Below are positions 1 to 40,823 of a stretch of DNA of 43,152 nucleotides, in pieces. The notes beneath the pieces are model-generated. The model was not told the origin of the DNA, made no database searches, and saw only the letters and a list, made by a program, of their open reading frames with translations. Both the position numbers and the translations under genes were made by a program. The DNA is from Folioceros fuciformis (taxonomy: Eukaryota): NCBI GenBank assembly GCA_049999805.1, contig JBNGIO010005873.1, positions 100,765-143,916 of the forward strand, written 5' to 3'. Every line of letters starts with the position of its first letter. Positions within the stretch are counted from its first letter, which is position 1.

Positions 1-1137
1 CGACTGGGTCGAGGAGAGAGCCTGCGACAAGTGCAGGGGCAGCGACAGGCGGGAGGTGAAACAGGCTACAAGGGAAGCCATTGCCAATGCCGCGAGAGCT
101 GCTTGCAGGCTTCGGGCCTGGAGGTTACCCGTCGTCCAACCCATGGGTCAGGCGGCTGCCCACCCAGGTTAATGTCCCCGGCCGCTTCTGTGTTGCAGGA
201 TTTGTGGCATGACATCTGCCGAGTGATAAATGTCAAAGCTGCCTGCCACACGGGAGTAGGAGCTAGGTTCCGAGCCTGCGGATTGCTGCGTTTGGGGCTC
301 TTGTTTGGTGGATTCCTCTCTCTCTGTGAGCTGCTTCCTTTGCCACTACCTACTAGCAGGTGGTCACGGCGCTGTACTTCAGAGGAAAAGCACAGACGTG
401 TGGACATCGCAGGCCATGTGTCTTTGCCACCGTGCCTACCATCCCGAGTCCTTTGTTGCTCATCACTGCTGTTGCGCGGTCTGGAGGTTGGAGTGTTGGT
501 TTAGCTGTCCTGTCCCCCAACTCCTTCGTAACAGCAGACACACAGCACCCACCTGGAGAAGGGATCTGCATGATCTTGCCGGCTGAAAGACTGTCTTCCT
601 TGCCTGGGTTGGGCTGGGCTGGGCTGGCCGGACTTTTTGAGTGAACAGACCCGTTGCCCCCCGAGTCACAGCCGAAGTCCTTGTCACCCAAGGTTTCCCC
701 TGCTCTGATGGATCCCATCCTGCTGGGATGGCTGATCCAAAGCCCCCCGGGCCGTGATCATGCCACCAGTGCCGGACGCCTTTCTCTAGCAAGGCCGAAT
801 TGCAAGCAGGATGGATTCGAACTGGCGTGCTTCTTGTCTTGTGCTGGTACATGCCTGTGGTATCCGTGTTCTCCTGGTATGGTAGTTCACGCTTTCTTTA
901 GTGTTTGCGTCCACTTCTTGTTCTGAAGAGGTGGAAAGGCGGGCCGAAATTGTATGCAATTGCCCTTGATTTTGTCTGGTGGAAGTCCGCCACCCCCTGG
1001 CCCCGGGTGTGGTCTCACGTATTGTACTGTCTTGTGCATGTCCAGGGAGCTGTGATGTGAGCACATTCTGCATCATGGAAGGACGGAGAAATGGTACGAT
1101 GGCAAACTCAAGAAGTGGGCAAGGGCCTTGACATGAC

Positions 1138-2622
1138 ATGGCGGCCCAGTGTGCGAGCTTGATGGCACCTCCGGATGAGCACCGTGCTGTGTCAGACATA
1201 ATGCACAAGGCCAGCTTAGATCGTGTATTTCCAGGAGGAGCTGTGGGTTTTGGGTCCTGCAATCTGCCGGTCTACTACCGAGCATACGGGACCTTGACAT
1301 ACGAGTCCACGATTGCAGTGACCCCGCAATCTGTGTGGGACATGGCTTCCATCACCAAGGTGATGGTCACAACTCCCTCCATCATGCTCCTGTATGACAG
1401 GGGCCTGCTCAAGCTGGATGCTCGCGCTTGCTACTACATTCCAGAGTTCGGCACCAACGGCAAGGAAGGCGTCACCGTGCGGCAGCTGCTTGCCCATACT
1501 GCAGGACTGCGCGAATTTTACGACTTCTTCGGCATGGGCCTGACCTCAAGACAGCAGGTTTTGGACTACATCATGAACGATAAGCTGTGGTACGCGGTGG
1601 GCACTGCACGCTACAGCGACCTCTCCATGATAGTGCTCGGCTTAGTTGTGGAGCGGATTTCTGGGATTCCCTTGGACGAATTTGCTGCCAAGGAATTGTT
1701 GGAGCCCCTGGGCCTCAGGCACACTTACTTCCGGCCAACAGACTGTTCCGACTTCGATCCCTCTGTGGTTCCCACGGAGGTGGATCTGGTGCACAGGAAC
1801 CGTCTTCTCTGGGGGGAAGTCCACGATCCTACAGCTTTTCTGCTGGGAGGTGTGGCCGGGCATGCGGGCCTCTTTTCATCCATCGTGGATGTGTGCCGGT
1901 TTGCTCAGCTCATGCTGGCTGGAGGCATGGACCTGCCTACTAACAGGCGCTTCTTCCATGAGCAGACTGTGAGGTTGTTCACCACTCCAGCTCCCCAGAC
2001 AGCACGCAATCCCCGCCCCTTTGCTCTTGGCTGGGACGTGGCAGTGCGCAGGTCCTTGGATGGTTATACCTCCGCAGGACGGTTCCTCGGGCCCCGAACC
2101 TTTGGACATACTGGCTTCACTGGCACGTCACTGTGGATGGATCCTGATCAAAACTTGTTTGTAGCTCTGCTCACCAATGCTGTGCACCCAACTGCGACAT
2201 CTGGATCTGGGCACAGGGTTCGAGATGTGCGGCCGTCGATTGCTGATGCTGCCGTGCAGGCCATGAGGGAGCAGGCAATACCTAGGGAGCTCCTGACTTG
2301 GCATCTGGGTCCGTTGTCGGGTCTCTTCGCTGACGAGGCAGCCAAGCCCTTACACAGAAGGGGAGACCCAGGGAAGGTTTTGTACGTCCATCACGAACAC
2401 AGGTCCAATCCTCTGCAGCCTGGTGAGCAAGGAGCACTCCCTGTCCAGACGCTGGGACTGTTTGCAAAACAAGCCTTCGCACCTCTTGGTGATCAGCGGC
2501 CACCAATTCAGGGACCACCTCCTCCAGGGAATTTTGTTAAGATTATAGCGGCCGATGACTTGAACTGGCAAACTCTGCTACCAGTAGTCGTCCTCCTCTG
2601 CCTGTACTGCAAGTTCTCGTAG
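1138..2622 (+). CDS. Intronless serine beta-lactamase/PBP-fold hydrolase (class C/AmiE-YbbE-like) with hydrophobic C-terminal tail
   Basis: 494-aa ORF with SxxK (WDMASITK), LLAHTAGL, YSDL, VHDPTA, GVAGHAGLFS and FGHTGFTGTSLWMDP motifs typical of bacterial beta-lactamase-related serine hydrolases. In-frame TGA lies 9 nt upstream of the ATG. Ends WQTLLPVVVLLCLYCKFS. Confidence 0.88.
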   Translation: MAAQCASLMAPPDEHRAVSDIMHKASLDRVFPGGAVGFGSCNLPVYYRAYGTLTYESTIAVTPQSVWDMASITKVMVTTPSIMLLYDRGLLKLDARACYYIPEFGTNGKEGVTVRQLLAHTAGLREFYDFFGMGLTSRQQVLDYIMNDKLWYAVGTARYSDLSMIVLGLVVERISGIPLDEFAAKELLEPLGLRHTYFRPTDCSDFDPSVVPTEVDLVHRNRLLWGEVHDPTAFLLGGVAGHAGLFSSIVDVCRFAQLMLAGGMDLPTNRRFFHEQTVRLFTTPAPQTARNPRPFALGWDVAVRRSLDGYTSAGRFLGPRTFGHTGFTGTSLWMDPDQNLFVALLTNAVHPTATSGSGHRVRDVRPSIADAAVQAMREQAIPRELLTWHLGPLSGLFADEAAKPLHRRGDPGKVLYVHHEHRSNPLQPGEQGALPVQTLGLFAKQAFAPLGDQRPPIQGPPPPGNFVKIIAADDLNWQTLLPVVVLLCLYCKFS

Positions 2623-2700
2623 AAGAGGCGAGTCGAACAAATTTGTAGGAAGATTAGCTCTTCACCAATTTGATTCATGAAGGGGCCAATGCGTCAGTTG

Positions 2701-2844
2701 CTCATTGCAGTGGCAAGTTCTAAATTCAAAGCATCTTGTGCTCTGGCATCCCACCTACCAGTCTAAGCTCCACTCATTGCAGTGGCAAGTTCTGAATTCA
2801 AAGCATCTTGTGCTCTAGCATCCCACCTACCAGTCTAAGCTCCA
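2701..2844. repeat. 72-bp direct tandem duplication (2 copies)
   Basis: ctcattgcagtggcaagttct...cagtctaagctcca at 2701 and 2773, with 2 mismatches. Lies between the convergent 3' ends of the hydrolase and AMMECR1. Confidence 0.95.
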
Positions 2845-3175
2845 CATGCACGGCCTTCATCAGCCGATTCGCATCCAACAACCATGGGAGTTCAACAGCC
2901 AATTTGGCTGGAATCCAATGAAATGTTTTATGGGCTACAAATGTGACCCTCACAGAGAGCTCACGGGAACCTACCTACTACTACTCTCCTGGCCAGCTGA
3001 ATTGCTTGGCAGACATTATTGGGGTTTCTTTTTACAGATCTCCGGTTGACAGAACATGTACCTTTTTCCTTGCTGGACTGACGGGCAAAGGAAAAAAGGC
3101 AATCCTAGGCCTGGCAATTGGCAAGACCTACCTGGCGCACAGATGAGACATTCCCACGGAGTGTACGTACATACC

Positions 3176-4536
<1,361 letters not shown>

Positions 4537-5805
4537 GGCGACGCCGGGGATGGAGCAGGCCGAGAACGAAGGATTAGAGAGCACAGTGGCGTCGGTATGC
4601 AGAGGCCAATTGCGGAACAAGCCCACCCGCTTGTTCTGCGCACATACCACGCCCCGGCGCCGGCAACACCATGGATGGCCGGACACAAGCAGCAGGTCGC
4701 TAGCTGCGGGACATCCGCGCGGATGGCGAGGCTGTGGATCGGGCGGAAAGCAACAGCATAGCACAAAGCGCTTGAGATTCGATTGCTGGCTGCCAAAGAA
4801 CTGTCGCACCGCACCTTAGGGGCTGAGAGGTAAACGTGCCCTATACGGCCCTGTTACTTTCCCCACCAAGACAATGCATTAGTGGAACGTTTGTTGCAAG
4901 TGCAGTCCACAGCGATGCTCCTCTCCACACTGCTTACCACCCGGGGCAGAAGTGCAAGACCCATGCAACCCCGTTCTGGAGGGGCGTACCTAATTGTAAC
5001 CGCGACACCCGATTCCGCCGGCTCTTATTATACAACTTCCTTCCTCCTTCGTATCGTGATTAGGCGCAGTGCACCGCAGGCACTGCTGCTGTCTTGTGTT
5101 GCCTACAGTATGTACAACCATGATAAATGCCAGGTTTTCAGGTACACATGTGTGCAGGTACCGCGTTCGTTACATATGTCGTGTATCATGGTACAAGCTA
5201 GGCGATGCGACTAGGTACCGAGTTCCAAAACATTCCGTCCCAGTTGTAATGTCCATGTTTCCACGGGTAGCCCTAATTGGTCAGAGCAAAAAAAGGAGTA
5301 ATGAATGGACAAGGTGTAACGTGGCGAGCGAGGTGAGGAGCACGACTAACCAGATCGTAACACTCGGAGGGAGTAAGCAGACTTGTGCTACGGTGCTTGC
5401 TTCGCGTTGCGGTTTGCCAATCTTTCCGGGAACCTCCAATTTCGCGGCTAGACGGACGACTGCTCCCGATTGTAAAGAAAATAACGGAGACTGAGCTAGC
5501 TGTAGCAGATCGTGTGGTATGAGACTGGGGCCAGGGCAAGTAGCATGGAGGGACCAGGGCCCGGGATTCCGTGCGCATCGGCAGCGGGCTGCTTGCGGCA
5601 ATGATCGTTCCCGGCAGCTCTCGGGCTTGCTGGATTGCCGTGGCGGAGGGGTCACAGCTGGTAGTTCATAGGGGATGGCAGCCAAGGCACTGGAGGCTAG
5701 GCTAGGGAGCCTGTGGACCTTCTTTTCTGCTGCTGGCCGATTTGATTGGTGTGGAATGCTCTTGTCGTAGTGCGTGTACTTGATGATGACTTACGGAGGG
5801 CGCCC

Positions 5806-8751: not shown

Positions 8752-9133
8752 ATGAAATGTTGTAGAGTATTTTGAAGAATGTGGATACTGCAACTGGCCG
8801 TGGTACCGTGACTCGTATGTTCCAAAGGTTCGACTCATACGTCCATATTGTAGGCATGTGTGGGGCGGCGCAGCCCTGTACTGTACAGATCCTGTAACCA
8901 TGGACTCGAAAACTCTATTTTGTGATTGTAACCATGGACTCAAAGACTTTATTTGTTGGTGCCTGGCCAGGGTGGTCGTGACTTTATCTCCGTTGGTGCT
9001 TCGCCAGGGTGGCCGTGACGTTATCTCCGTNNNNNNNNNNGGTGGCCGTGACGTTATCTCCGTTGGTGCTTCGCCAGGGTGGCCGTGGCGCGCGAGAAAA
9101 TCACGCGCGCGTGATTTTCTAACACCATATCAA
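8752..9133. mobile_element. Possible MITE or solo-LTR-like insertion with imperfect terminal inverted repeats
   Basis: Left end TGAAATGTTGTAGAGTAT resembles the reverse complement of the right end (TGATATGGTGTTAGAAAAT). GTAT flanks both sides. Contains internal direct repeats, a 37-bp minisatellite and a palindrome. Confidence 0.35.
8967..9087. repeat. 37-bp minisatellite spanning an assembly gap
   Basis: Unit ccagggtggccgtgacgttatctccgttggtgcttcg repeats on both sides of the N run at 9031-9040. Confidence 0.9.
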
Positions 9134-11153: not shown

Positions 11154-12759
11154 ATGAAGCCGAATGCGATGGTGCGGCGGCCGGCGGAAGGCTGCATCCA
11201 ACTGGTCATGGCGGGGTTGCTGATAGGGGGTAGCCTGCTGACGCTGCTAGCCCTACTCTGGCCCTCGTTGCTGCCTGAGTCGGAGTCCGGGTCTGGGTCC
11301 GGGTCCGAGTCCGGGTCCGGGTCCGGGTCCGGAGCCGGAGCCGGAACCGGAGCGGGTCGCTGCTGGCCTCGGAAGCAGGCTCCCGATTCCCAGGAGCAGG
11401 GAAGCCTGGGAGGCCACGGCCGGGTGCGGCAGTTCGCGGAGCACGGGCGGGTGTCCGCCCTCTTCGTGCAGATGGGCGCGTTCCGAGGCGGGGACAAGAC
11501 ATTCGCGGTGGTGGGTCTCTCCTCCCGCCGGCTGCATGACGTAGGCAACCCCTGGTTCCATTGCGCGTGGGAGGAGCCCGGGGAGCCGGAGGTGCTCGGC
11601 ACCGTCGAGGTGATGAAGCCAGACTGGCAGCTGGGCCGGATCTACACCGTCCTAGTGCTCAACTGCACCTTCCCGCGCCCGGTCGGGACGTCGAGGCCCG
11701 ATCGGGGCGGCTCCCTCCTACTCACGGCGGGCTATGGGGATTCCGACCGATTCTCCCCGCCGGAGACGTTCACGGCGCTGCAGGAGGCCCCGGGGGAGTA
11801 CAATCCCCGCCTCTACTCCGGAGAGGACCCCCCGCCGTTCGATTTCCTCTACTGCGGCTCGCCCTTGTTCGGAGACCTGAGCCCGCAGCAGATACGGGAA
11901 TGGATGGCGTACCATGTGCGCCTCTTCGGCCCTCGCTCCCTCTTCGTGTTGCACGACGCCGGTGGAGTGAACGACGGGGTCCGCCGTGTGATCGAGCCCT
12001 GGGAGCGCCTGGGCCGCGTTCTGGTGGAGAACGTGCGGAACCAGGCTCGGTACGATGGCTACTACTTTAACCAGTTCCTGGTGCTCAACGACTGCCTGCA
12101 CCGCGCCAGGTTCCTAGCGCCATGGGTCTTCTTCTTCGACGTGGACGAGTATGTGGCCGTGGCCCCCGGCACGACTCTCCCGGAAGTCATGGACGGGTTC
12201 ATAAACTACACCCAGGTGCTCTTCACGCAGAAGCTCATGTCCGTCCGGCTGTGCGCCGACGTCTGGCGAGGCTCCGTCCATAGGTACACATGAGAAGGGA
12301 TCTGGACGAGGTCGCGGTGTGTGTGCGAGCGATATGGGATAATCGTGACTTCGCTCATGGCGTTGGTATTGCTGTTGTTTGTATGACAGGGATGCGGATC
12401 ACTGGACGGTGGAGAAGCTGGAGTACAGGGAGGTGGTGCCGGCGGGGAAGGTGCTGGCAGTCAAGTACGCAGTGCAGCCGAGGAATGTGTTCGCCACCGG
12501 CGTGCATCGCACAGAGCAGTTTTTGGGATTGAGCACAATTGCTGAGCCGGACAGATTGCAGTACTACCATTTCCATGGCGGCATCAACAACAGGGGGCAG
12601 GTGTGCTTGGAATTCCCTTCGCAGGATCCCACCAACTCCTCACTTTTCCGGAGCTTGAGAGGCGGGGCCTTCGAGTTCGATGACGGCTTGGCTCGCTCCA
12701 TTCCCTCAGTTCGCGAGTTTGAGCTGGAAACCGTAGGACGGCAGCCCTTCGTTCCATGA
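11154..12759 (+). CDS. GALS: Glycosyltransferase family 92, galactan beta-1,4-galactosyltransferase (GALS-like), 2 exons (11154-12283, 12390-12759)
   Basis: Type II N-terminal TM segment; LFVQMGAFRGG, FAVVGLSS, PDWQLGRIYTV, YCGSPLFGDL, REWMAYH, HDAGG, DCLHRARF, FFFDVDEY (DxD), KYAVQPRNVFATGVH, YYHFHG. Confidence 0.93.
11277..11352 (+). repeat. Hexanucleotide repeat encoding a (Ser-Gly/Ala-Gly)n stem linker in GALS
   Basis: (tccggg)n and (gccgga)n encode ESESGSGSGSESGSGSGSGAGAGTG. Confidence 0.9.
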
Positions 12760-20966: not shown

Positions 20967-21707
20967 TCAATACTTGGGATACGCGGGAGGGGTCTGGCTG
21001 TAGGGGGCAGGAGGAGACGTCTCCTCAGGCTTCTCGTACGAAACGGCTGGGGATTGGTTGTAGGGAGGAGGAGGAGGAGGAGGAGGGGCCTGAAAGTAGG
21101 CGGGTGGAGGAGCTTGGTATTTGTGGGGTGATGGAGTCTTGTAAACTGTCTTGGTCTTGTAATCTGGCTTCTTGTGAGGCTTTTCCTCTGGCTTTTTGTA
21201 TGGCTTCTTGTAGGGCTTCTCTTCTGGCTTCTTGTAGGGCTTCTCTTCTGGCTTCTTGTAGGGCTTCTCCTCTGGCTTCTTGTAGGGCTTCTCTTCTGGC
21301 TTCTTGTAGGGCTTCTCCTCTGGCATCTTGTAGGGCTTCTCCTCTGGCTTCTTGTAGGGCTTCTCCTCTGGCTTCTTGTAGGGCTTCTCCTCTGGCTTCT
21401 TGTATGGCTTCTCCTCTGGCTTCTTGTANNNNNNNNNNGGCTTCTCCTCTGGCTTCTTGTACGGCTTCTCCTCTGGCTTCTTGTATGGCTTCTCCTCTGG
21501 CTTCTTGTACGGCTTCTCGTCTGCCTTCGTATTGTCGTGGCGAGGCTTGTTGTAGTTGTCGTAGGGCTTCTCCTCAGGCTTCTTTACCTCCTTCTTGGGC
21601 TGGTCGAAGGCATAGGTATAGGCATAGTTATAGCCTGCACTGGCCTCCTGAACTACGGTGCCTGCAAGGAAGAACAGGAGAAGGAGGCCCAGCAGCCGGA
21701 GCCCCAT
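20967..21707 (-). CDS. Secreted Lys/Glu/Pro/Tyr-rich repetitive cell-wall protein (extensin/PRP-like)
   Basis: Signal peptide MGLRLLGLLLLFFLAGTVVQEASA, YNYAYTY, more than 12 KPEEKPYK repeats, a VYK motif and a poly-Pro/Tyr tail. N gap lies inside the repeat. Confidence 0.85.
   Translation of the reverse strand: MGLRLLGLLLLFFLAGTVVQEASAGYNYAYTYAFDQPKKEVKKPEEKPYDNYNKPRHDNTKADEKPYKKPEEKPYKKPEEKPYKKPEEKXXXXYKKPEEKPYKKPEEKPYKKPEEKPYKKPEEKPYKMPEEKPYKKPEEKPYKKPEEKPYKKPEEKPYKKPEEKPYKKPYKKPEEKPHKKPDYKTKTVYKTPSPHKYQAPPPAYFQAPPPPPPPPYNQSPAVSYEKPEETSPPAPYSQTPPAYPKY
21165..21520 (-). repeat. 24-bp coding tandem repeat (KPEEKPYK), interrupted by an assembly gap at 21429-21438
   Basis: Plus-strand unit ggcttctcctctggcttcttgtag repeated. 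Confidence 0.95.
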
Positions 21708-29985: not shown

Positions 29986-32943
29986 TCACGGTCGACCCTT
30001 ACAACTGCAACAACCAGCTGCGAATCGATGCACACGGTATCCATCCCTCACAACAATGTCTCGCTGTTCAAGCCTTGACATTATCTCTGTGGAACTGTGG
30101 CAGTCACTGCACATGCGGAGATTCTTCGTCACCATCAGTGGTGTCCCACTCGGAGTGTTCAAGAGGCCAAACGCCAGAGCTAGCTTCTCAGCATGTCCAC
30201 AAAGCACATCTTCCTTTTCCTTTTCAGACATTGGCTGAAACACGAACTCTGCGTGAGGAACGGAGATTGGCTTCAACACCAACTTCGTGTGAGGTATGTG
30301 GCCTCCTTCCTGCTTCAGACGTGCGTTCGTTCTCTCTACCTGAAGTGCAATATCCTCCCTTTTTTCTCCCACCACAAATCTATGTATTTCATTATTCACC
30401 TCTATGGTTGCCACCGCAGGCTTCTTGTTAGCTCCTAACATCATTCGCTGTTTTTCAATCCTGTCTACATCAGTCCACCTACCTGCATTGGCGTAGGCAC
30501 TCGCCATGAGCACATATGCGGGAGCCTCTTGTGGGTCCAGCCTGACAATGCTTTCAAAACACCACCTGGCCCTCTCTACATCCCTGTGACTTTTGCAGGC
30601 ATTCAACAAAGACTTCAATCCCACAACATTACTTTGAGTCTCGGATGATAAGCGCATCTTCTCTTCTAGCATCTTCTCTGCCTCATCTAGATGGCCTGCA
30701 CGCCCAAGAAGATCAATCATGCAATTATAATGCTCAAGACTAGGTGTGATACCATGCTGTTTAGCCATGGAATCAAAGTACTTGCGTCCATCATCGACCA
30801 GTCCCCCATGACTGCATGCCACTAGTAGGCAAGTAAAAGTAACATCATTAGGCTGAATTCCAGCAACCAACATCTCCTCAAAACAAGCTAGAGCCTTGTG
30901 ACCCTCATCACAAGTACCATATCCAGCTATCAGGGCGGTCCATGTCACCACATCTTTTGCGTCCATGCTGTCAAAAACCTGGCGAGCGTCTTCCACTTCC
31001 CCGCATTTTACATACATGTCTACGAGGCTGTTGCCCACCACTATGTTGTCAAACAGCCTTCTCTCCACAATCTGTGAGTGCAGCTGCCTTCCCTTCTGTA
31101 AAGCACCAGTGTTTGCACAGGCCTTCAGAAGGCAAGCAAAAGTAACAGGGTTAGCTAAGATGAGACCACTTTTTTCCATTTGTTCATACACCACAAACGC
31201 CTCTTGGCAGACTCCTTCCTGTGCATACCCACATTTTGCATACATGTCCACCAGGCAGTTCCCCAACACTACATCATCAAGTAGTCCTCTTTCGACAATC
31301 TGTGAGTGCAGGTGCCTGCCCTTCTCTATAGCACCAGTGCTTGCACAGGCATTCAGAAGGCAACAGAAGGTAACACGGTCAGCCAAAATCAGGCCCTCCT
31401 CCTCCATTTGTCCATAGAGGGCAAGTGCCTCATGTCCGAGCCCTTGCTGGGCATACCCAGCCATCAGGGCATTCCATGTCACTACATTCTTTGTGTTCAT
31501 GCTGTCAAAAACCTGGCGTGCATCTTTGAGTTCACCATACTTCGCAAACCCAGATATCAGTGCATTCCATGTCACCACATCCTTCGCGGCCATGTGGTCA
31601 AAAACTTGGCGAGCCGCTTTCAGTTCCCCACATTTCGCGTACATGTCCACCAGGGCATTGCCAACAAATAAGTTTGTAGGAATGCCACTCTGCAGTACAT
31701 CGTAGTGCACTTTTCTCCCGGATTCCAAGTCACCGGCAAATGCACACGCCTGAAGGGCAGCTACAAAGACGTGAGCATCCGCCTTGACTCCTGACCTACG
31801 CATCTCATGATACAGTCGTATGGCCTCACTAGGTCTCCCTTGCTTAGCACAAGCGGTCATTATGGAGGACCACATGAAAGCATCTGGTTTGCCCACCCTG
31901 CTGAGCACATCCATGGCCTTGTCTAGCCGACCTCCACCTGCATACATGCGCAAGATCTGGTTCCCCAAATACGCATTCGACTCGTATCCAAGTTTGACAA
32001 TGAGCTCATGAACTCGTCGACCCACGACCAGATCCTTCTTGGCTGTACACAGTTTCAGCACAGGGTAGAACAGAGACTCAGAACCGGGAGAGTCTGTGAG
32101 CGCTAGAGATTCCAGGGCTCCAACGGCCTCAAAAAGCTTCCCCTGTTGACATAACATGTTCACGGTAATAGCAGTGACAACACCCGTTTCCGATCCTGCA
32201 CACCTTTCACGTTCAGGCTTATTCTGAGGGCTAGATTCAGAGGGAGAGGGACCATGAACCATCGGATGAGCAAGTGATGGGCTCCGTACACTGCTACAGC
32301 AGGATCCCATTTCTGAACCTGCACACCATACAGGTTCAGGATCGTCTGGAGAGCTGGACTTGGGAGGAGAGGCACCGTGAGGCATGAGCATATCCAAGGA
32401 GAAGAGTTGCTCATCAACCCAAGCTGGCTTAAACATGTTGTTCAACCACAACACCTCTCCAGACCCCTTGCGCCGGAAGTCAGGGTAACGGGAACTCTTC
32501 TTATGTCGTCTGTTGTCCCACCACATGGTAGGGTCCAGAAAAAATTGTTGCCACAAATGCTCCTGCTCCTGGCAACGACCATCGCTGGAAATCCCGTCCG
32601 TATCCTTTCTCAGGAGTGAGGGTGCTGCGCTCCTTACACTGCTGCACCTAGAGGCTTTGCTTGCCAGGGTTCGACTCCCTAAGATGAGGTTAGCAGGAGC
32701 TCCTCGTAGAATCCCAAAACACACACCAATTTGTTGGGTCTCACCTGAAATCCGATGAAATGCAAAGAAAAGAAAAGAAGCTTTAGCCTTGGCTATGGCC
32801 ATCGTTGAGGGACCGCTGTCGGAGGTGCATGACAAGACTAGACTGCTCACAAATGCGCCCCCGCTACGCACTCTAACCCACATCCCCCCACAGCAACCGG
32901 GCCAGGGTTGGTAGACTGACCTGGACGGTGAATGGCTGTGCAT
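29986..32943 (-). CDS. PLS-PPR protein with C-terminal DYW:KP (GRP-ending) deaminase-like domain and N-terminal PDF motif; candidate U-to-C RNA editing factor
   Basis: PLS repeats; KKPAVATIEV replaces the PG box; CGHAEKLA, KNLRMCSDCH, HRFAAGCCSCKGRP*. N-terminal LWQQFF..PTMWWDNR.HK..RYPDF..KGSGEVLWL. True start may be a downstream Met. Confidence 0.92.
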   Translation of the reverse strand: MHSHSPSRSVYQPWPGCCGGMWVRVRSGGAFVSSLVLSCTSDSGPSTMAIAKAKASFLFFAFHRISGETQQIGVCFGILRGAPANLILGSRTLASKASRCSSVRSAAPSLLRKDTDGISSDGRCQEQEHLWQQFFLDPTMWWDNRRHKKSSRYPDFRRKGSGEVLWLNNMFKPAWVDEQLFSLDMLMPHGASPPKSSSPDDPEPVWCAGSEMGSCCSSVRSPSLAHPMVHGPSPSESSPQNKPERERCAGSETGVVTAITVNMLCQQGKLFEAVGALESLALTDSPGSESLFYPVLKLCTAKKDLVVGRRVHELIVKLGYESNAYLGNQILRMYAGGGRLDKAMDVLSRVGKPDAFMWSSIMTACAKQGRPSEAIRLYHEMRRSGVKADAHVFVAALQACAFAGDLESGRKVHYDVLQSGIPTNLFVGNALVDMYAKCGELKAARQVFDHMAAKDVVTWNALISGFAKYGELKDARQVFDSMNTKNVVTWNALMAGYAQQGLGHEALALYGQMEEEGLILADRVTFCCLLNACASTGAIEKGRHLHSQIVERGLLDDVVLGNCLVDMYAKCGYAQEGVCQEAFVVYEQMEKSGLILANPVTFACLLKACANTGALQKGRQLHSQIVERRLFDNIVVGNSLVDMYVKCGEVEDARQVFDSMDAKDVVTWTALIAGYGTCDEGHKALACFEEMLVAGIQPNDVTFTCLLVACSHGGLVDDGRKYFDSMAKQHGITPSLEHYNCMIDLLGRAGHLDEAEKMLEEKMRLSSETQSNVVGLKSLLNACKSHRDVERARWCFESIVRLDPQEAPAYVLMASAYANAGRWTDVDRIEKQRMMLGANKKPAVATIEVNNEIHRFVVGEKREDIALQVERTNARLKQEGGHIPHTKLVLKPISVPHAEFVFQPMSEKEKEDVLCGHAEKLALAFGLLNTPSGTPLMVTKNLRMCSDCHSSTEIMSRLEQRDIVVRDGYRVHRFAAGCCSCKGRP

Positions 32944-36183: not shown

Positions 36184-39100
36184 TTTATGCGAATTGCTCC
36201 GTAGTGAGATCCTTGGTAAGAATATCTGTAAGGGTCTGACTAGTGTGAACTTTGACAAGTTGTATCCTCTTGTCTTCCAACACCTTTCGAATGAAGTGAT
36301 ACTTCACTTTCTCATGTTTGGTCTTGGCATGAAACACTAGATTCTTTGCTAATTGGATACCACTCTGGCTATTACAATGCAACACTGGTAGCTCAACCTT
36401 AATCCCCAAGTCTACCACTAAACGAGCAAGCCTCAGTCACTACAACATACTCGGCCTTTGTGGTAGATAGCTTTATGCATGATTGCAAACGAGATCGCCA
36501 TGAGATTGTCCCTCCAATGCACATGAAGACATAACCTCATGTGGACCTCCTTTTGTCCATATCCCCTACATAATCAGCATCTGTATATCCCACGACAGAT
36601 GCATTTTCACTACCAAAACATATGCACAAAGCTTTTGTACCATTTAAATACCTTATAACTCCTTTTACTGCGTTCCAATGCTTCTTGTCAGGGTTTGATA
36701 TAAACTTACTAACCACTCCCACTGCAAAGGCAATGTCAAGACTTGTAGCAATCATTGCATACATCAAACTCCCTACAGTTGATGAGTATGGAACCTTCTC
36801 CATTTTAGCTTTGTCCTCCGCAGAGAATGGGCAATCCTTGCTCGAAAGTTTCACATGTGGAGGCAACGGAGTACTCAATACCTTCCCCTTCTCCATGTTG
36901 AAACGTTGAAGGACCCTGTTAATGTATTTAGTCTAAGACAAGTAAAGCAAATGCTTATGTCTATCTCGACGAATACGCATGCCAAGAATATGGCTAGCCT
37001 CTCCCAAGTATGTCATGTCAAAGCGAGCATTCAACTTTGACTTCAACGCTGAAATCTCATCACTGCTATTCCCATCAATTATCATATCATTCACATAAAG
37101 GACCAAAATGAATAAGCTTCCATCCTTAGCTTGCTTCGTATAGAAGCAATGATCCTCATCGCCATGTTTGTAGCCTTGAGAAAGCATAAATGAGTGGAAC
37201 TTGTAATACCACTCTCTGGGTGCCTGTTTCCAACCATAAAGGCTCTTCTTTAACCTGCACACCAAATTCTCTCTGCCCTTCTCAATGAAACCCTCTAGTT
37301 GCTGCATGTATACCTCTTCTTGGAGATCACCATGCAAAAATGCCGACTTCACATTCATTTGGACAAATTCCATGTCATTCCTCACAACCAAAGCAAGAAC
37401 ACATCGCAAAGTGGTCATTTTGACAACTGGTGAGAAAATCTCATCAAAGTCAATATCTTGCTGTTGCTTAAAACCCTTAGCAACCAATCGTGCCTTGTAC
37501 TTGGGTTTGCCATCATAGGGTATGACCTTCACCTTATACATCCATTTGCATGGTAATGCCTTCTTATCCCTAGGCAACCGAACCAACTCCCAAGTTCGGT
37601 TTCTATGGAGCGAATCCATCTACGATTGCATTGCCTTCTCCCACTTGTCCTCGTGAGTCAATGACATGGCCTCTTTGTAACAAGAGGGCTCCCCACAATC
37701 CGTCAGCATGACATAATCAAGAGATGCAACATACCTATCAGGAGGACATGAAGTCCATCCTGACCTACGAAACACATGCGCCTCAACCAAAGCTGGTTGC
37801 ACTCTCTCTTCTTCTACAAGTGGAGGAACAGGTTCCTGCACATCACGACGTTCAACCTGCCCGTGACGGTCAAGTCCATCTTCTTGGAAGACCACTCGTC
37901 GCACCTCCACAGTTGGAGTAGGCTTCTTGCGCACTTTGTTCTCATTGAAGAACACGTCATTGCTGCGAACAACCTTCTTGGCTTCTGGATCACATAAACG
38001 ATATACCATCTCACCAGAGTGACCATCGCCAAGAAAAATACATTTTTTGGACGTGGGTGCCAACTTGTCCCGAAACTTCTTTGAAACATGGTAATATGCC
38101 TTGCAGCCAAACACTCGTAGATGCTTGTAAGACGGCTTCTTTCCAGACCACAGCTCCTTTGGAACCTGCTTATTCACAGCCTTATCAAGAGATCTGTTAA
38201 TAAGATGCACCGCAATAGACACTGCTTCTGCCCCAAATCCGTTAGGCAATCCAAAGTTTCACGACAAACTACGCATCTCTCCTAGATGGTCCTGTTCATC
38301 CGTTCAGCCACACCATTTTGGGGAGGAGTATATGAGGCAGTCAATTCTCTCTTGATACCCTTGGAATCACATAATGACTCGAAAGCCTTCGAAACATACT
38401 CTCCCCCATTGTCTGTCCTTAAACACCTTAGTCGGAGGCTAGACTGATTCTCCACAAGGGTGACAAATTTCTGAAACACTGTCAGAACATCGTCCTTTTT
38501 CCTCAAAGGATAAACCCACACCTTGCGTGAGAAATCATCTATGAAAGGGACAAAATAAGATGCACTGCCTAATGATACAGTGGGCATAGGTCCACAAACG
38601 TCACTGTGAACCAATGCAAGAGGTCTACTTTTGTGTTTACCTCTTGCTCCATGTGGTGATTTCGTCTATTTCCCATACAAACGGTTCTCACACACGGAGA
38701 AATCGGAGAAGTAAAAAACAGGTACGTAACCAAAATGAGATAAGATCTTCATTCCTTTTTGAGACATATGTCCTAACCAACAATGCCACAGGGAAACATT
38801 TGGCTATTTCGTTACACAAATCACATGATCCTTGACAGTGGTTACGTGAAGTGAGTACAAACTGCCACACTTCGATCCATCAGTTAACACAAGAGAACCT
38901 TTGGAGATCTTCCAAGAACGATCTCCAAACCAACAGTGGTAGCCAGCATCATCCAACTGCCCTGTGCTAATCATGCTTTTGGTCAACTTCGGAACATGCC
39001 TAACATCCTTGAGTACGAATGAAGATCCATTGTCGAACTTGAGCTACACATCACCAACGCCTGCAATCTTGCATGCGTAGTTATTTCCAAGCCAAACACA

Positions 39101-40823
39101 TCCTTTCCTAGTAGCATCATAAGTGCTAAACCACTCCCTATGCGGAGTAACATGAAAAGATGCTCTAGAGTCAATCATCCAAATAGAGAATAAGTGACTC
39201 TCCACGGCTGTTAGTTGTGCAAAATGGAAGGAAGAAGAGGTAAGAACATCTCCATCATCAACAGAGTTCACCTCGTCACGCTTGACACATGGACTTTCCT
39301 TGTTGTCGCTCTGCTTCTTCTCGTTTCCTTTGTCCTTCCTGAACTTCTCGCAGTCCCTTCTGATGTGACCCTTTTTGTGACAATGATAACACTCAACATT
39401 GTTACGACTACGACATTTGCTACGGGAAAAAGTTTGCTCCTTGTACTTCCCCTTTGAAATGGACCTTCCTCTCACCATGAGGGCATTGGAACCTTTCGAA
39501 GGTTCCATATTCTTTCTGTTCACTTCTTCTGTTAACAGGCTATCTTCTACATTTACAATGGTGAGACTACTGGCAGGAGCGGAATTACTCAGAGTTGTAC
39601 GAAAGGAGTCCCAACTCTCTGGTAATGTGACCAATAGAAACATAACTCTCACAGAATCTGGGAATGAGATACCTTGAGATGAGAGCTAGCTGAAAATGAT
39701 ATTGAACTCATTAAGATGATCGGACATCCTCGTCCCTTCCTTCATCTTCAAATCCACCAGCTGTTTCAAACAGTACACTTGAGAAGCAGCACTTTGCTTC
39801 TCATAGAGGTCACACATCTTCTACCATAGCTCGTAACTTGTGGTCTTGTCTTTCACATTGAAGTAGACCGACTTCGAAAATGTTAGCATGATGGTAGATC
39901 TAGCAAGCTCATCTAGATCCTGCTACTCATCCTGAGTCATGCTAACTGGTTTCACACCTAGCAACTTTATGGGCTTGATCTGCTTTTTCTGCACTAGAAC
40001 ATTGTACACTTGTTCTTTCGAGAACGGGAAGTTAGTACCATTAAACTTCTCAATATTGAACATAACGTTTTTTGAGGACGTCATCATTCAAAATCGATAC
40101 AAATGAAACAAAGGCTAGTTAGAAATGGTCTAAATGTAATCTAGATTCTAAAAGTTATCTTTATGGTAATCACGCCTTATTCTGCATCGGCTGACACAAC
40201 TTGTAGACCTCAAACCATCGCATGAGTCTGTCCAGCACCACCGTTCTTTCCACGGCCGAATGCACTATTATTGCTGCCTTGCAGCATTCGGAACCCCATG
40301 ACAGCCTTTCTACTTCGCGGCGTCGACTGTCCTGCGACACTGGCTACCAAGGCTCGACGCGGTTTGACGCCTCCCTGCGCCCGTCTTCCTACGCCGAGCA
40401 TGGCAAGGCAGCCGTCCCCCCCAGCGGGACTGCTTGTGCTGTGGGGCTTATCCGCCCCGTGCCGATGGTGCGGCATCCGGCCTAGCGATCGCACGGCACG
40501 TCTGGGTGCCCCGCGGCCTGCGCTAGGCAGGGGGCCTAGCGCCCTACGCGTCGCGATAGCGCCCTCCCGGGTACCTCGCACTGGGGCAGGCACCACGTGC
40601 TGCGGAGTGGTGCGGCGGTGCCCTCCTAGGTGCCCCGCGTTGCCGCAGCCCATGCCTTAGCATGGCGGAGCTGGAGCTCCCTCCACCTCAGGCAGCAGGG
40701 TTGCCGCACACGAGCCCCCGAGATGCTGCCCTCACTTCGGAGCCTTCCTCACGACCTTGTTGCGCCTTTGTGCATCTTGTCTGCAGCACCTACAGCCATC
40801 ACCCTCTTGCTCCGCAACCTAAC

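Follow-up and report, generated by a model that had tools for sequence, protein, structure and literature searches.

We analysed a window of 43,152 nucleotides (nt) from the hornwort Folioceros fuciformis (GenBank assembly GCA_049999805.1, contig JBNGIO010005873.1, positions 100,765 to 143,916 of the forward strand; all coordinates below are counted from the first letter of this window). The window is plant nuclear DNA, and near its start an uninterrupted open reading frame (ORF), 1138-2622 on the plus strand, coding for an AmiE-like serine hydrolase, faces a spliced AMMECR1 gene on the minus strand. The ORF codes for 494 amino acids (aa) from an ATG to a TAG codon, with an in-frame TGA at 1129-1131 just upstream of it. 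Its GC content is 0.566 and its GC content at third codon positions (GC3) 0.622; four other coding regions of the window have GC3 values of 0.505-0.85, no compositional anomaly of the ORF was found in comparison with these four, and the GC profile around it is unremarkable. The stop codons of the two genes are 553 nt apart. N runs occur in the window only at 9031-9040 and 21429-21438, none of them between the ORF and AMMECR1. The coordinates of the features are given in Table 1.

Table 1. Features located in the window, with those of the serine hydrolase gene first.
Feature	Position	Strand	Evidence or remark
Single-exon coding sequence (CDS), AmiE-like PF00144 serine hydrolase with predicted C-terminal anchor	1138..2622	+	ORF, Pfam, relatives, tree, transcript contigs
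PF00144 beta-lactamase/DD-peptidase-fold catalytic domain, residues 28-354	1219..2199	+	Pfam, AlphaFold2, Foldseek
SITK (SxxK motif), S71-I-T-K74	1348..1359	+	motif scan, 45-row alignment
YSD, second motif, residues 159-161 (equivalent to the class C YxN position)	1612..1620	+	motif scan, alignment
Subfamily signature WGEVHDPT ... GVAGHAGLFS	1819..1878	+	motif scan, alignment
VHD, residues 228-230	1819..1827	+	motif scan
GHAGLFS, residues 241-247	1858..1878	+	motif scan
GHTG, third motif, G323-H-T-G326 (HTG replaces KTG)	2104..2115	+	motif scan, alignment
Variable linker, predicted disordered, residues ~402-474	2341..2559	+	pLDDT <50 for 402-409, 411-474
Hydrophobic C-terminal helix, residues 477-493, tail-anchor candidate	2566..2616	+	AlphaFold2, hydropathy filter
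Putative intron(s) of the 5' untranslated region (5'-UTR)	847..1045	+	acceptor AG 1044-1045; alternative GT donors 847-848 (X2), 952-953 (X3)
Tandem duplication, 72 nt, 3'-UTR/intergenic between the convergent genes	2697..2840	+	offset 72, 64/70 letters identical
AMMECR1, convergent neighbour, 206 aa	CDS 4536->3176	-	X1-X3 joints, PF01871
AMMECR1 coding exons	4436-4536, 4180-4299, 3780-3894, 3507-3597, 3176-3369	-	four GT..AG introns
GT92-type glycosyltransferase ORF	11154-12293	+	GC3 0.85, (SG)n/(GA)n low-complexity stretch near N-terminus
ORF with signal-peptide-like start, many tandem KKPEEKPY repeats, proline-rich tail	20967-21707	-	sequence
Pentatricopeptide repeat (PPR) protein, E motif and DYW deaminase domain, 985 aa, intronless	29986-32943	-	PF14432, 109.7 bits
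Ty1/copia pieces in separate frames: RVT_2, SH3-like integrase C-terminal part, gag / Pol beta-barrel part	36933-39652	-	

The Pfam family PF00144 (Beta-lactamase; MEROPS S12-type serine hydrolases) matched the ORF product over residues 28-354 with 209.7 bits and an E-value of 8.1e-62 (cut-off 27 bits). The motifs SITK, YSD and GHTG, which the preliminary description of this DNA had picked out as a complete catalytic set, and the VHD and GHAGLFS that it had named besides were all located in the ORF. In an alignment of 45 rows (the query, 20 other rows of the eukaryote clade described below and 24 bacterial relatives), Y159, S160, G323, H324, G326 and the GFTGTS strand were invariant, and S71, K74, H229, D230 and H242 were conserved in at least 90% of the rows. 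By analogy with the established chemistry of class C beta-lactamases and DD-peptidases, S71 is presumed to be the nucleophile and K74 the general base. The AlphaFold2 model of the 494-aa protein has a mean predicted local distance difference test (pLDDT) score of 81, residues ~12-400 being confidently folded with values mostly above 90. Comparison with Foldseek showed the two-domain alpha/beta plus all-alpha fold in this model, with a probability of 1.00 to class C/AmpC, R61, EstB/family VIII esterase and LACTB chains and TM-scores of 0.61-0.77 (normalised to target length). Class C beta-lactamases, the R61 DD-peptidase, family VIII carboxylesterases and human LACTB share with the query this fold and the three-motif serine mechanism, at 17-23% identity. 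The LACTB chains are titled 'mitochondrial' in the PDB, and LACTB is a filament-forming protein of the intermembrane space, unlike the query with its predicted C-terminal anchor. The best matches in searches of the PDB by sequence and by fold included the family VIII carboxylesterase 4ivi (best sequence match, E 3e-19), the macrolactin acyltransferase 6kjh, EstG, EstB, LovD and LACTB. The best NCBIfam model was PBP4B NF002968 (157.8 bits, E 3.8e-46, residues 51-351), whose equivalog cut-off is 385, and E. coli PBP4B (YfeW) is on these scores a homologue of the query and not a fellow member of its family. The class C beta-lactamase model NF033085 reached 55.5 bits against a cut-off of 415, with residues 29-199 alone aligning. 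No AmiE model was present among the best 25 of the 46 NCBIfam matches, and the ESM Atlas gave generic PF00144 clusters only. A role as a beta-lactam resistance enzyme was rejected, as the class C models scored far under their cut-offs.

A protein search scored 8000 candidates, 7985 of them at E <= 0.001, and the best 120 were listed; counts of named rows below refer to these 120. The preliminary description had called the product a bacterial-type hydrolase of the beta-lactamase family and had pointed to fusions with GH3 modules, and both points hold: GH3 domains were present in 10 of the best 120 rows and were confirmed for P0031, P0032 and P0060. In the nine bacterial ORFs checked from genome loci, the PF00144 domain was followed by NamZ_N and NamZ_C in eight (L003, L031, L039, L066, L036, L054, L021 and L012), the ninth (L063) being a standalone PF00144 ORF without NamZ. 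Over the catalytic domain, the NagZ-GH3 fusions (P0031, P0032, P0060) and the NamZ/GH171 fusions (L003, L031, L039) are 34-52% identical to the query and have in common with it SxxK, YSD, PTEVD, WGEVHD, GxAGHAGLFS and GHTGFTGTS; they differ in their glycosidase domain and in ending ~35 residues past the last motif of the PF00144 domain, where the plant protein has a linker and a predicted anchor instead. PF07075 (NamZ) was found in the control genomes of Bacillus subtilis and Bacteroides thetaiotaomicron. According to PMC8054146, B. subtilis has an operon murQ-murR-murP-amiE-nagZ-namZ in which NagZ, AmiE and NamZ are exo-enzymes degrading peptidoglycan sequentially, and AmiE is secreted; B. 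subtilis AmiE (YbbE) is listed under PF00144 in Table 1 of PMC10653849. Since the relatives of the query are fused to NagZ and NamZ, the operon partners of AmiE, and since AmiE is itself a PF00144 protein, the label AmiE-like, already used in the preliminary description, is a reasonable one for the subfamily, assigned by family and fusion partners and not by alignment to B. subtilis AmiE. B. subtilis AmiE is a secreted exo-N-acetylmuramoyl-L-alanine amidase, whereas the plant protein has neither signal peptide nor partner in cis and appears tail-anchored. In one Acidobacteriaceae metagenome-assembled genome (L012:4372-8484, plus strand) a single frame of 1371 aa holds a sodium:solute symporter (PF00474), the AmiE-like PF00144 domain and NamZ; this frame would unite transporter, amidase and muramidase if it is truly a single gene.

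The N-terminus of the query is short, with 17 residues before the first helix and acidic residues among them, and the orthologues likewise begin within ~20-40 residues of the PF00144 domain and have no presequence. A plastid or mitochondrial presequence was rejected for the query on account of this short N-terminus with its acidic residues, and a glycosylphosphatidylinositol-anchor signal because an N-terminal signal peptide is absent. After the catalytic domain, the chain continues through the linker of ~75 residues into a hydrophobic C-terminal helix, and the 10-residue pLDDT blocks over residues 471-494 average 64, 94 and 85. The orthologues have ~136-156 residues after the LLTNAVHP motif (238 in Klebsormidium) and the two bacterial rows compared 35-36. 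In the orthologues the best 15-residue hydropathy window is the C-terminal one, and in the green lineage the C-terminal hydrophobic stretch is often preceded by W-R-R/K. A filter for an uncharged run of >=11 residues, with <=4 residues after it and a mean Kyte-Doolittle value of >=1.5, was passed by 23 of 32 rows of the eukaryote clade vs 2 of 85 other rows. The protein has a lone hydrophobic segment within ~30 residues of the C-terminus and no signal peptide or other transmembrane segment, as tail-anchored proteins do by sequence. From these predictions we infer for the green-lineage proteins a tail-anchor architecture that would leave the catalytic domain facing the cytosol.

Twenty-two of the best 120 rows carry eukaryote names, all of the green lineage apart from one doubtful 'Pavlova' label, and are 45-72% identical to the query. 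They comprise Sphagnum, Diphasiastrum, Marchantia, Riccia, Klebsormidium, Closterium, Chloropicon, 'Pavlova lutheri', an unidentified EukProt transcript (c13825_g1_i1) and EukProt identifiers that we take to be Spirogloea (SM000...), Ginkgo (Gb_), Mesotaenium (Mesen1) and Picocystis (Pico_ML). Members of the same protein clusters add Physcomitrium patens LOC112274301 (XP_024359429.1), Ceratodon purpureus, further Sphagnum species and Picocystis salinarum. The streptophyte rows are 57-72% identical to the query, and the best bacterial rows 44-52%. No angiosperm is among the 22 eukaryote-named rows, and no Selaginella, fern, Chara or glaucophyte is named among the matches listed. The orthologues are Mp5g10020 / MARPO_0048s0069 in Marchantia polymorpha, O6H91_04G112600 in Diphasiastrum complanatum, R1flu_003824 in Riccia fluitans and a 'beta-lactamase' in Klebsormidium nitens; the names given at source are 'hypothetical', 'uncharacterized' or 'Beta-lactamase-related domain-containing protein'. 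The plant orthologues, at 59-72% identity and mostly 494-511 aa (Riccia 550, Klebsormidium 584), fall in the same clade as the query and are built alike, a PF00144 domain without presequence being followed by a variable linker and, at the C-terminus, a hydrophobic stretch. They differ from it in the linker sequence, which is not conserved, and in the moss genes the isoforms show splice-dependent breaks, whereas the query CDS is uninterrupted. The gene is a new member of a catalogued, uncharacterised plant family. No paper on this family or its locus identifiers was found in the literature searched; in PMC9667741, 'beta-lactamase' is named once among plant genes derived from horizontal transfer. 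The 'Pavlova lutheri' row (P0022) is near-identical to the Picocystis rows P0036, P0023 and P0164, with branch lengths of 0-0.07. Its haptophyte label is probably contamination or a mislabel, and it was not counted as a haptophyte gene.

For the phylogeny, 134 rows were available, made up of the query, 120 proteins and 13 ORFs cut from 13 of 80 genome loci; these loci had been found by scanning six peptide patterns, WGEVHDPT among them, the pattern that retrieved each locus not being reported. The tree was built from 86 rows and 362 columns by a quick IQ-TREE search under LG+C20+F+G4 PMSF, with supports from the Shimodaira-Hasegawa-like approximate likelihood ratio test (SH-aLRT). The query was placed within a land-plant clade of 10 rows (SH-aLRT 99), its position among the non-seed land plants being unresolved. 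This clade lies inside a streptophyte clade of 16 rows (95), with Klebsormidium basal and the zygnematophyte rows next to the land plants, so that the branching order in the streptophyte clade follows the species tree. The streptophyte clade is in turn contained in a clade of 29 rows (97), which holds all eukaryote-named rows and a few unnamed metagenome rows. The sister of this eukaryote-type clade (84) consists of 36 rows and includes every Bacteroidota- or Rhodothermales-named row in the tree. Further out are rows of Acidobacteriota, Desulfobacterota, Nitrospirae, Acidithiobacillus and Ferrovum, those of Acidobacteriota, Desulfobacterota and Acidithiobacillus being NamZ-fused. All 12 organism-named bacterial rows among the best 120 belong to Bacteroidota/Bacteroidetes, Rhodothermia/Rhodothermales or Ignavibacteria. 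None of these 12 is cyanobacterial and no cyanobacterium is named among the 80 genome loci, in a sampling that was not aimed at cyanobacteria. Such a tree is to be expected if the gene was acquired from bacteria long ago and then passed on vertically within the green lineage. Because the gene was inherited vertically and orthologues are present across the green lineage, any bacterial origin would predate at least the streptophytes and probably the Viridiplantae.

Logan contigs from four runs (X1, X2, X3 and X18) were mapped to positions 900-5000 of the window. X1 comes from the same species as the window and has 0 differences; X2 and X3 come from related organisms, with 123 differences in 1646 nt and 131 in 1675 nt (~7.5-7.8%), and the three runs belong to three studies. 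X18, from the same study as X1, placed 0 contigs on this region. The contigs of X1-X3 derive from spliced RNA, since each of them lacks the AMMECR1 introns, with joints at CT..AC (GT..AG when read on the minus strand). In X1, a single contig of 6606 nt runs from AMMECR1 exon 3 and then without a joint through 3367..900, covering the whole ORF. The contigs of X1-X3 span 1045/1046..2690/2720 or more, with 0 joints and 0 indels within 1138-2622; in X2 and X3 the nearest indels are at 1135 and 2634, outside the CDS by 3 nt on the ATG side and by 12 nt on the stop side. At the 72-nt duplication, X2 and X3 skip 108 and 80 nt, and the duplication is absent from both. The AMMECR1 gene was itself assembled from these joints: its single-exon ORFs gave sub-threshold or no Pfam matches, in-frame exon pieces being needed, and four of the exon pieces match the consecutive PF01871 profile positions 32-66, 69-102, 107-130 and 133-166. 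The preliminary description had the ORF adjoining a spliced AMMECR1 gene without a gap and had asked for reads that might expose a chimeric assembly. The five exons, the lack of N between the genes and the RNA contigs bridging both confirmed the former, and the contigs from three organisms that join the ORF to the spliced AMMECR1 gave no sign of a chimera. Transcription of the ORF, a CDS without splicing in three organisms and physical linkage to a spliced eukaryotic gene follow from these contigs, and together they remove contamination and chimeric assembly as explanations.

The statement that the gene has no introns held for the CDS but probably not for the complete gene. The fit of X2 and X3 to the window ends at 1045/1046, directly after an AG, and by eye their loose ends match 816-845 (26 of 30 letters) and 922-951 (25 of 30), with GT after each. 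These ends indicate a spliced 5'-UTR intron with alternative donors, and beyond its CDS the gene is probably not intron-free. The X1 contig continues upstream past the window start; it could combine overlapping transcripts from more than one gene, or contain RNA that had not been spliced. In Physcomitrium and Sphagnum, the annotated isoforms share prefixes and suffixes that break at residues ~73, 95, 144, 333, 357 and 448, and one Sphagnum isoform is without exactly 31 internal residues. Because these isoforms diverge at some five internal points, the moss orthologues are multi-exon, and a loss of introns in this lineage is accordingly the simplest account of why the CDS of the window is uninterrupted.

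With a probability of about 0.78, we read the ORF as an expressed, vertically inherited nuclear gene of a non-seed land plant, which codes for a tail-anchored AmiE-like serine hydrolase of ancient origin in the green lineage. The preliminary description had favoured a transfer into the hornwort, with Nostoc as the hinted context and the lack of introns as a sign. A recent transfer from a bacterium, for example the cyanobiont or an associated microbe, into the hornwort lineage can draw on the bacterial type of the family, on the intronless CDS and on the large number of bacterial relatives in the protein search. Its proponents would nevertheless have to account for orthologues in bryophytes, a lycophyte, a Ginkgo-type model and streptophyte algae that are closer to the query than the best bacterial rows, for a placement in the land-plant clade with a species-tree-like order, and for a eukaryote-specific linker and C-terminal anchor common to other plants. 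These plant orthologues are unlikely to be contaminants, being on chromosome-scale contigs (15-31 Mb). The base composition of the ORF is normal, the related species splice a 5'-UTR intron, the moss orthologues are multi-exon and the named bacterial rows offer no cyanobacterium, so neither the missing introns nor Nostoc lends weight to this explanation, which we consider very improbable. Orthologues spread over the Viridiplantae in a vertically inherited clade, which the preliminary description had itself named as the finding that would speak against its proposal, are what the phylogeny returned. That the ORF is an assembly artefact, or a bacterial contaminant misjoined to plant DNA, is suggested by the bacterial look of the domain and by nothing else. 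Against such a misjoin stand the bridging contigs of three organisms and three studies, the absence of an N gap before AMMECR1 and the fact that the closest relatives are plants, and its likelihood is practically nil.

An older source also has to be weighed, namely the cyanobacterial plastid ancestor, by endosymbiotic gene transfer, or an ancestral eukaryotic gene, in either case with no donor from the FCB (Fibrobacteres-Chlorobi-Bacteroidetes) group. The confinement of the family to a plastid-bearing lineage would suit this origin, and the bacterial sample, consisting of best-scoring rows and peptide-pattern matches, is not taxon-balanced. We nevertheless hold it to be unlikely, although clearly less so than a recent transfer, since no cyanobacterial name occurs in the 12 named bacterial rows or the 80 loci, the eukaryote clade is sister to the Bacteroidota/Rhodothermales-named rows (84), and no non-green eukaryote is named among the matches listed, bar the doubtful 'Pavlova' that resembles Picocystis.

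As for how such an enzyme would work, it would be inserted post-translationally as a tail-anchored protein, its catalytic domain lying on the cytosolic side of an organellar membrane or of that of the endoplasmic reticulum. Assisted by K74, Y159 and the H324-T-G strand, S71 of the SxxK motif would form an acyl-enzyme, and a small substrate would in this way be hydrolysed at an amide or ester bond. Judged by the ancestry of the protein, this substrate would most plausibly be a peptide linked to N-acetylmuramic acid (MurNAc-peptide) or one containing D-amino acids. The same gene with the same evolution may instead have another function, as a carboxylesterase, an acyltransferase or a LACTB-like peptidase acting on a lipid or cytosolic metabolite, its link to peptidoglycan having been lost at some time after the old acquisition. 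The esterases, acyltransferases and LACTB among the best PDB matches are in line with this, as are the predicted cytosol-facing topology, which would keep the domain off plastid peptidoglycan, the lack of a NagZ or NamZ partner in cis and the apparently patchy distribution, several plant and algal taxa not being named among the matches listed. However, the PDB matches at 17-23% identity are generic for the fold, identity to the NagZ/NamZ-fused bacterial proteins is 40-50%, and the subfamily motifs PTEVD, WGEVHD, GVAGHAGLFS and HTG are kept, unlike the third motif of the esterase type. We regard such a change of function as a serious possibility, with odds of roughly one in three.

A more specific proposal is that the protein might be a tail-anchored muramoyl-peptide amidase at the cytosolic side of the outer chloroplast envelope, which would cleave muropeptides released from the peptidoglycan of dividing plastids and would have been acquired once from the FCB group and lost together with plastid peptidoglycan. 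Doubtful as it is, it draws on the distribution of the named rows, which partly mirrors the full Mur gene sets reported in PMC12681378. In the predicted topology the catalytic domain points away from the peptidoglycan layer, and the absence of Selaginella, ferns, Chara and glaucophytes from the matches listed also counts against it. That such an amidase would be the eukaryotic counterpart of the bacterial NagZ/AmiE/AmpD recycling step belongs to the same proposal and is equally doubtful.

Several observations weigh against the reading of the gene as an ancient, vertically inherited, tail-anchored AmiE-like hydrolase. The tree search was a quick one, and 48 of the 134 rows did not enter it, namely 9 near-duplicates or fragments and the rest from P0061-P0120, of which every third row was kept; the sampling was not aimed at cyanobacteria, glaucophytes or red algae, so that any assignment of a donor lineage is tentative. 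On the side of the enzyme, the closest solved structures in the PDB fold search are 17-23% identical, the best PDB sequence matches are esterases and acyltransferases and no amidases, the best NCBIfam score lies under its equivalog cut-off, and the plant gene has no NagZ or NamZ partner in cis, its neighbour being AMMECR1 and its protein carrying PF00144 only. A cytosol-facing domain, if the predicted topology is right, would not reach peptidoglycan between the plastid envelopes. As to the anchor, 9 of the 32 eukaryote-clade rows fail the filter (3 Closterium models, 2 fragments and 4 unnamed metagenome rows), and the hydrophobic run is short (13 residues without charge in the query, 11-16 in the orthologues). 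Regarding transcription, the RNA nature of X1-X3 was deduced from their spliced joints, the recorded run type being a guess, and in the X1 contig the 5'-UTR intron is retained and the sequence extends ~3.9 kb beyond position 900.

If the favoured reading holds, the combination of an intronless CDS and a bacterial-type domain is an unreliable indicator that a gene was transferred recently. The gene would represent a conserved and wholly uncharacterised enzyme family of the green lineage, of modest but real interest, which descends from bacterial peptidoglycan-recycling amidases and gained a eukaryote-specific linker and a predicted C-terminal membrane anchor, with no angiosperm named among the best 120 rows. 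As Marchantia and Physcomitrium carry an orthologue, the family is accessible in model bryophytes, and it could help to tell if a turnover enzyme has been retained in plants whose plastids have peptidoglycan.

The rest of the window holds further plant-type genes and a transposon remnant (Table 1). The PPR-DYW protein ends in ...CSCKGRP, not the usual DYW, with a KPA motif upstream, and presumably resembles the 'DYW:KP' variants, which are tied to U-to-C editing of RNA in hornworts, lycophytes and ferns. Such a resemblance, if real, would likewise agree with the window coming from a non-seed plant. A second PPR-E protein and a P450 fragment are present as well. The GT92-type ORF lies where the GC content of the window peaks (0.664 over one kilobase). 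The product of the KKPEEKPY ORF looks like a repetitive, proline/lysine-rich wall-type protein, and its repeats are interrupted by the N run at 21429-21438. The Ty1/copia pieces, lying in separate frames, suggest a degraded element.

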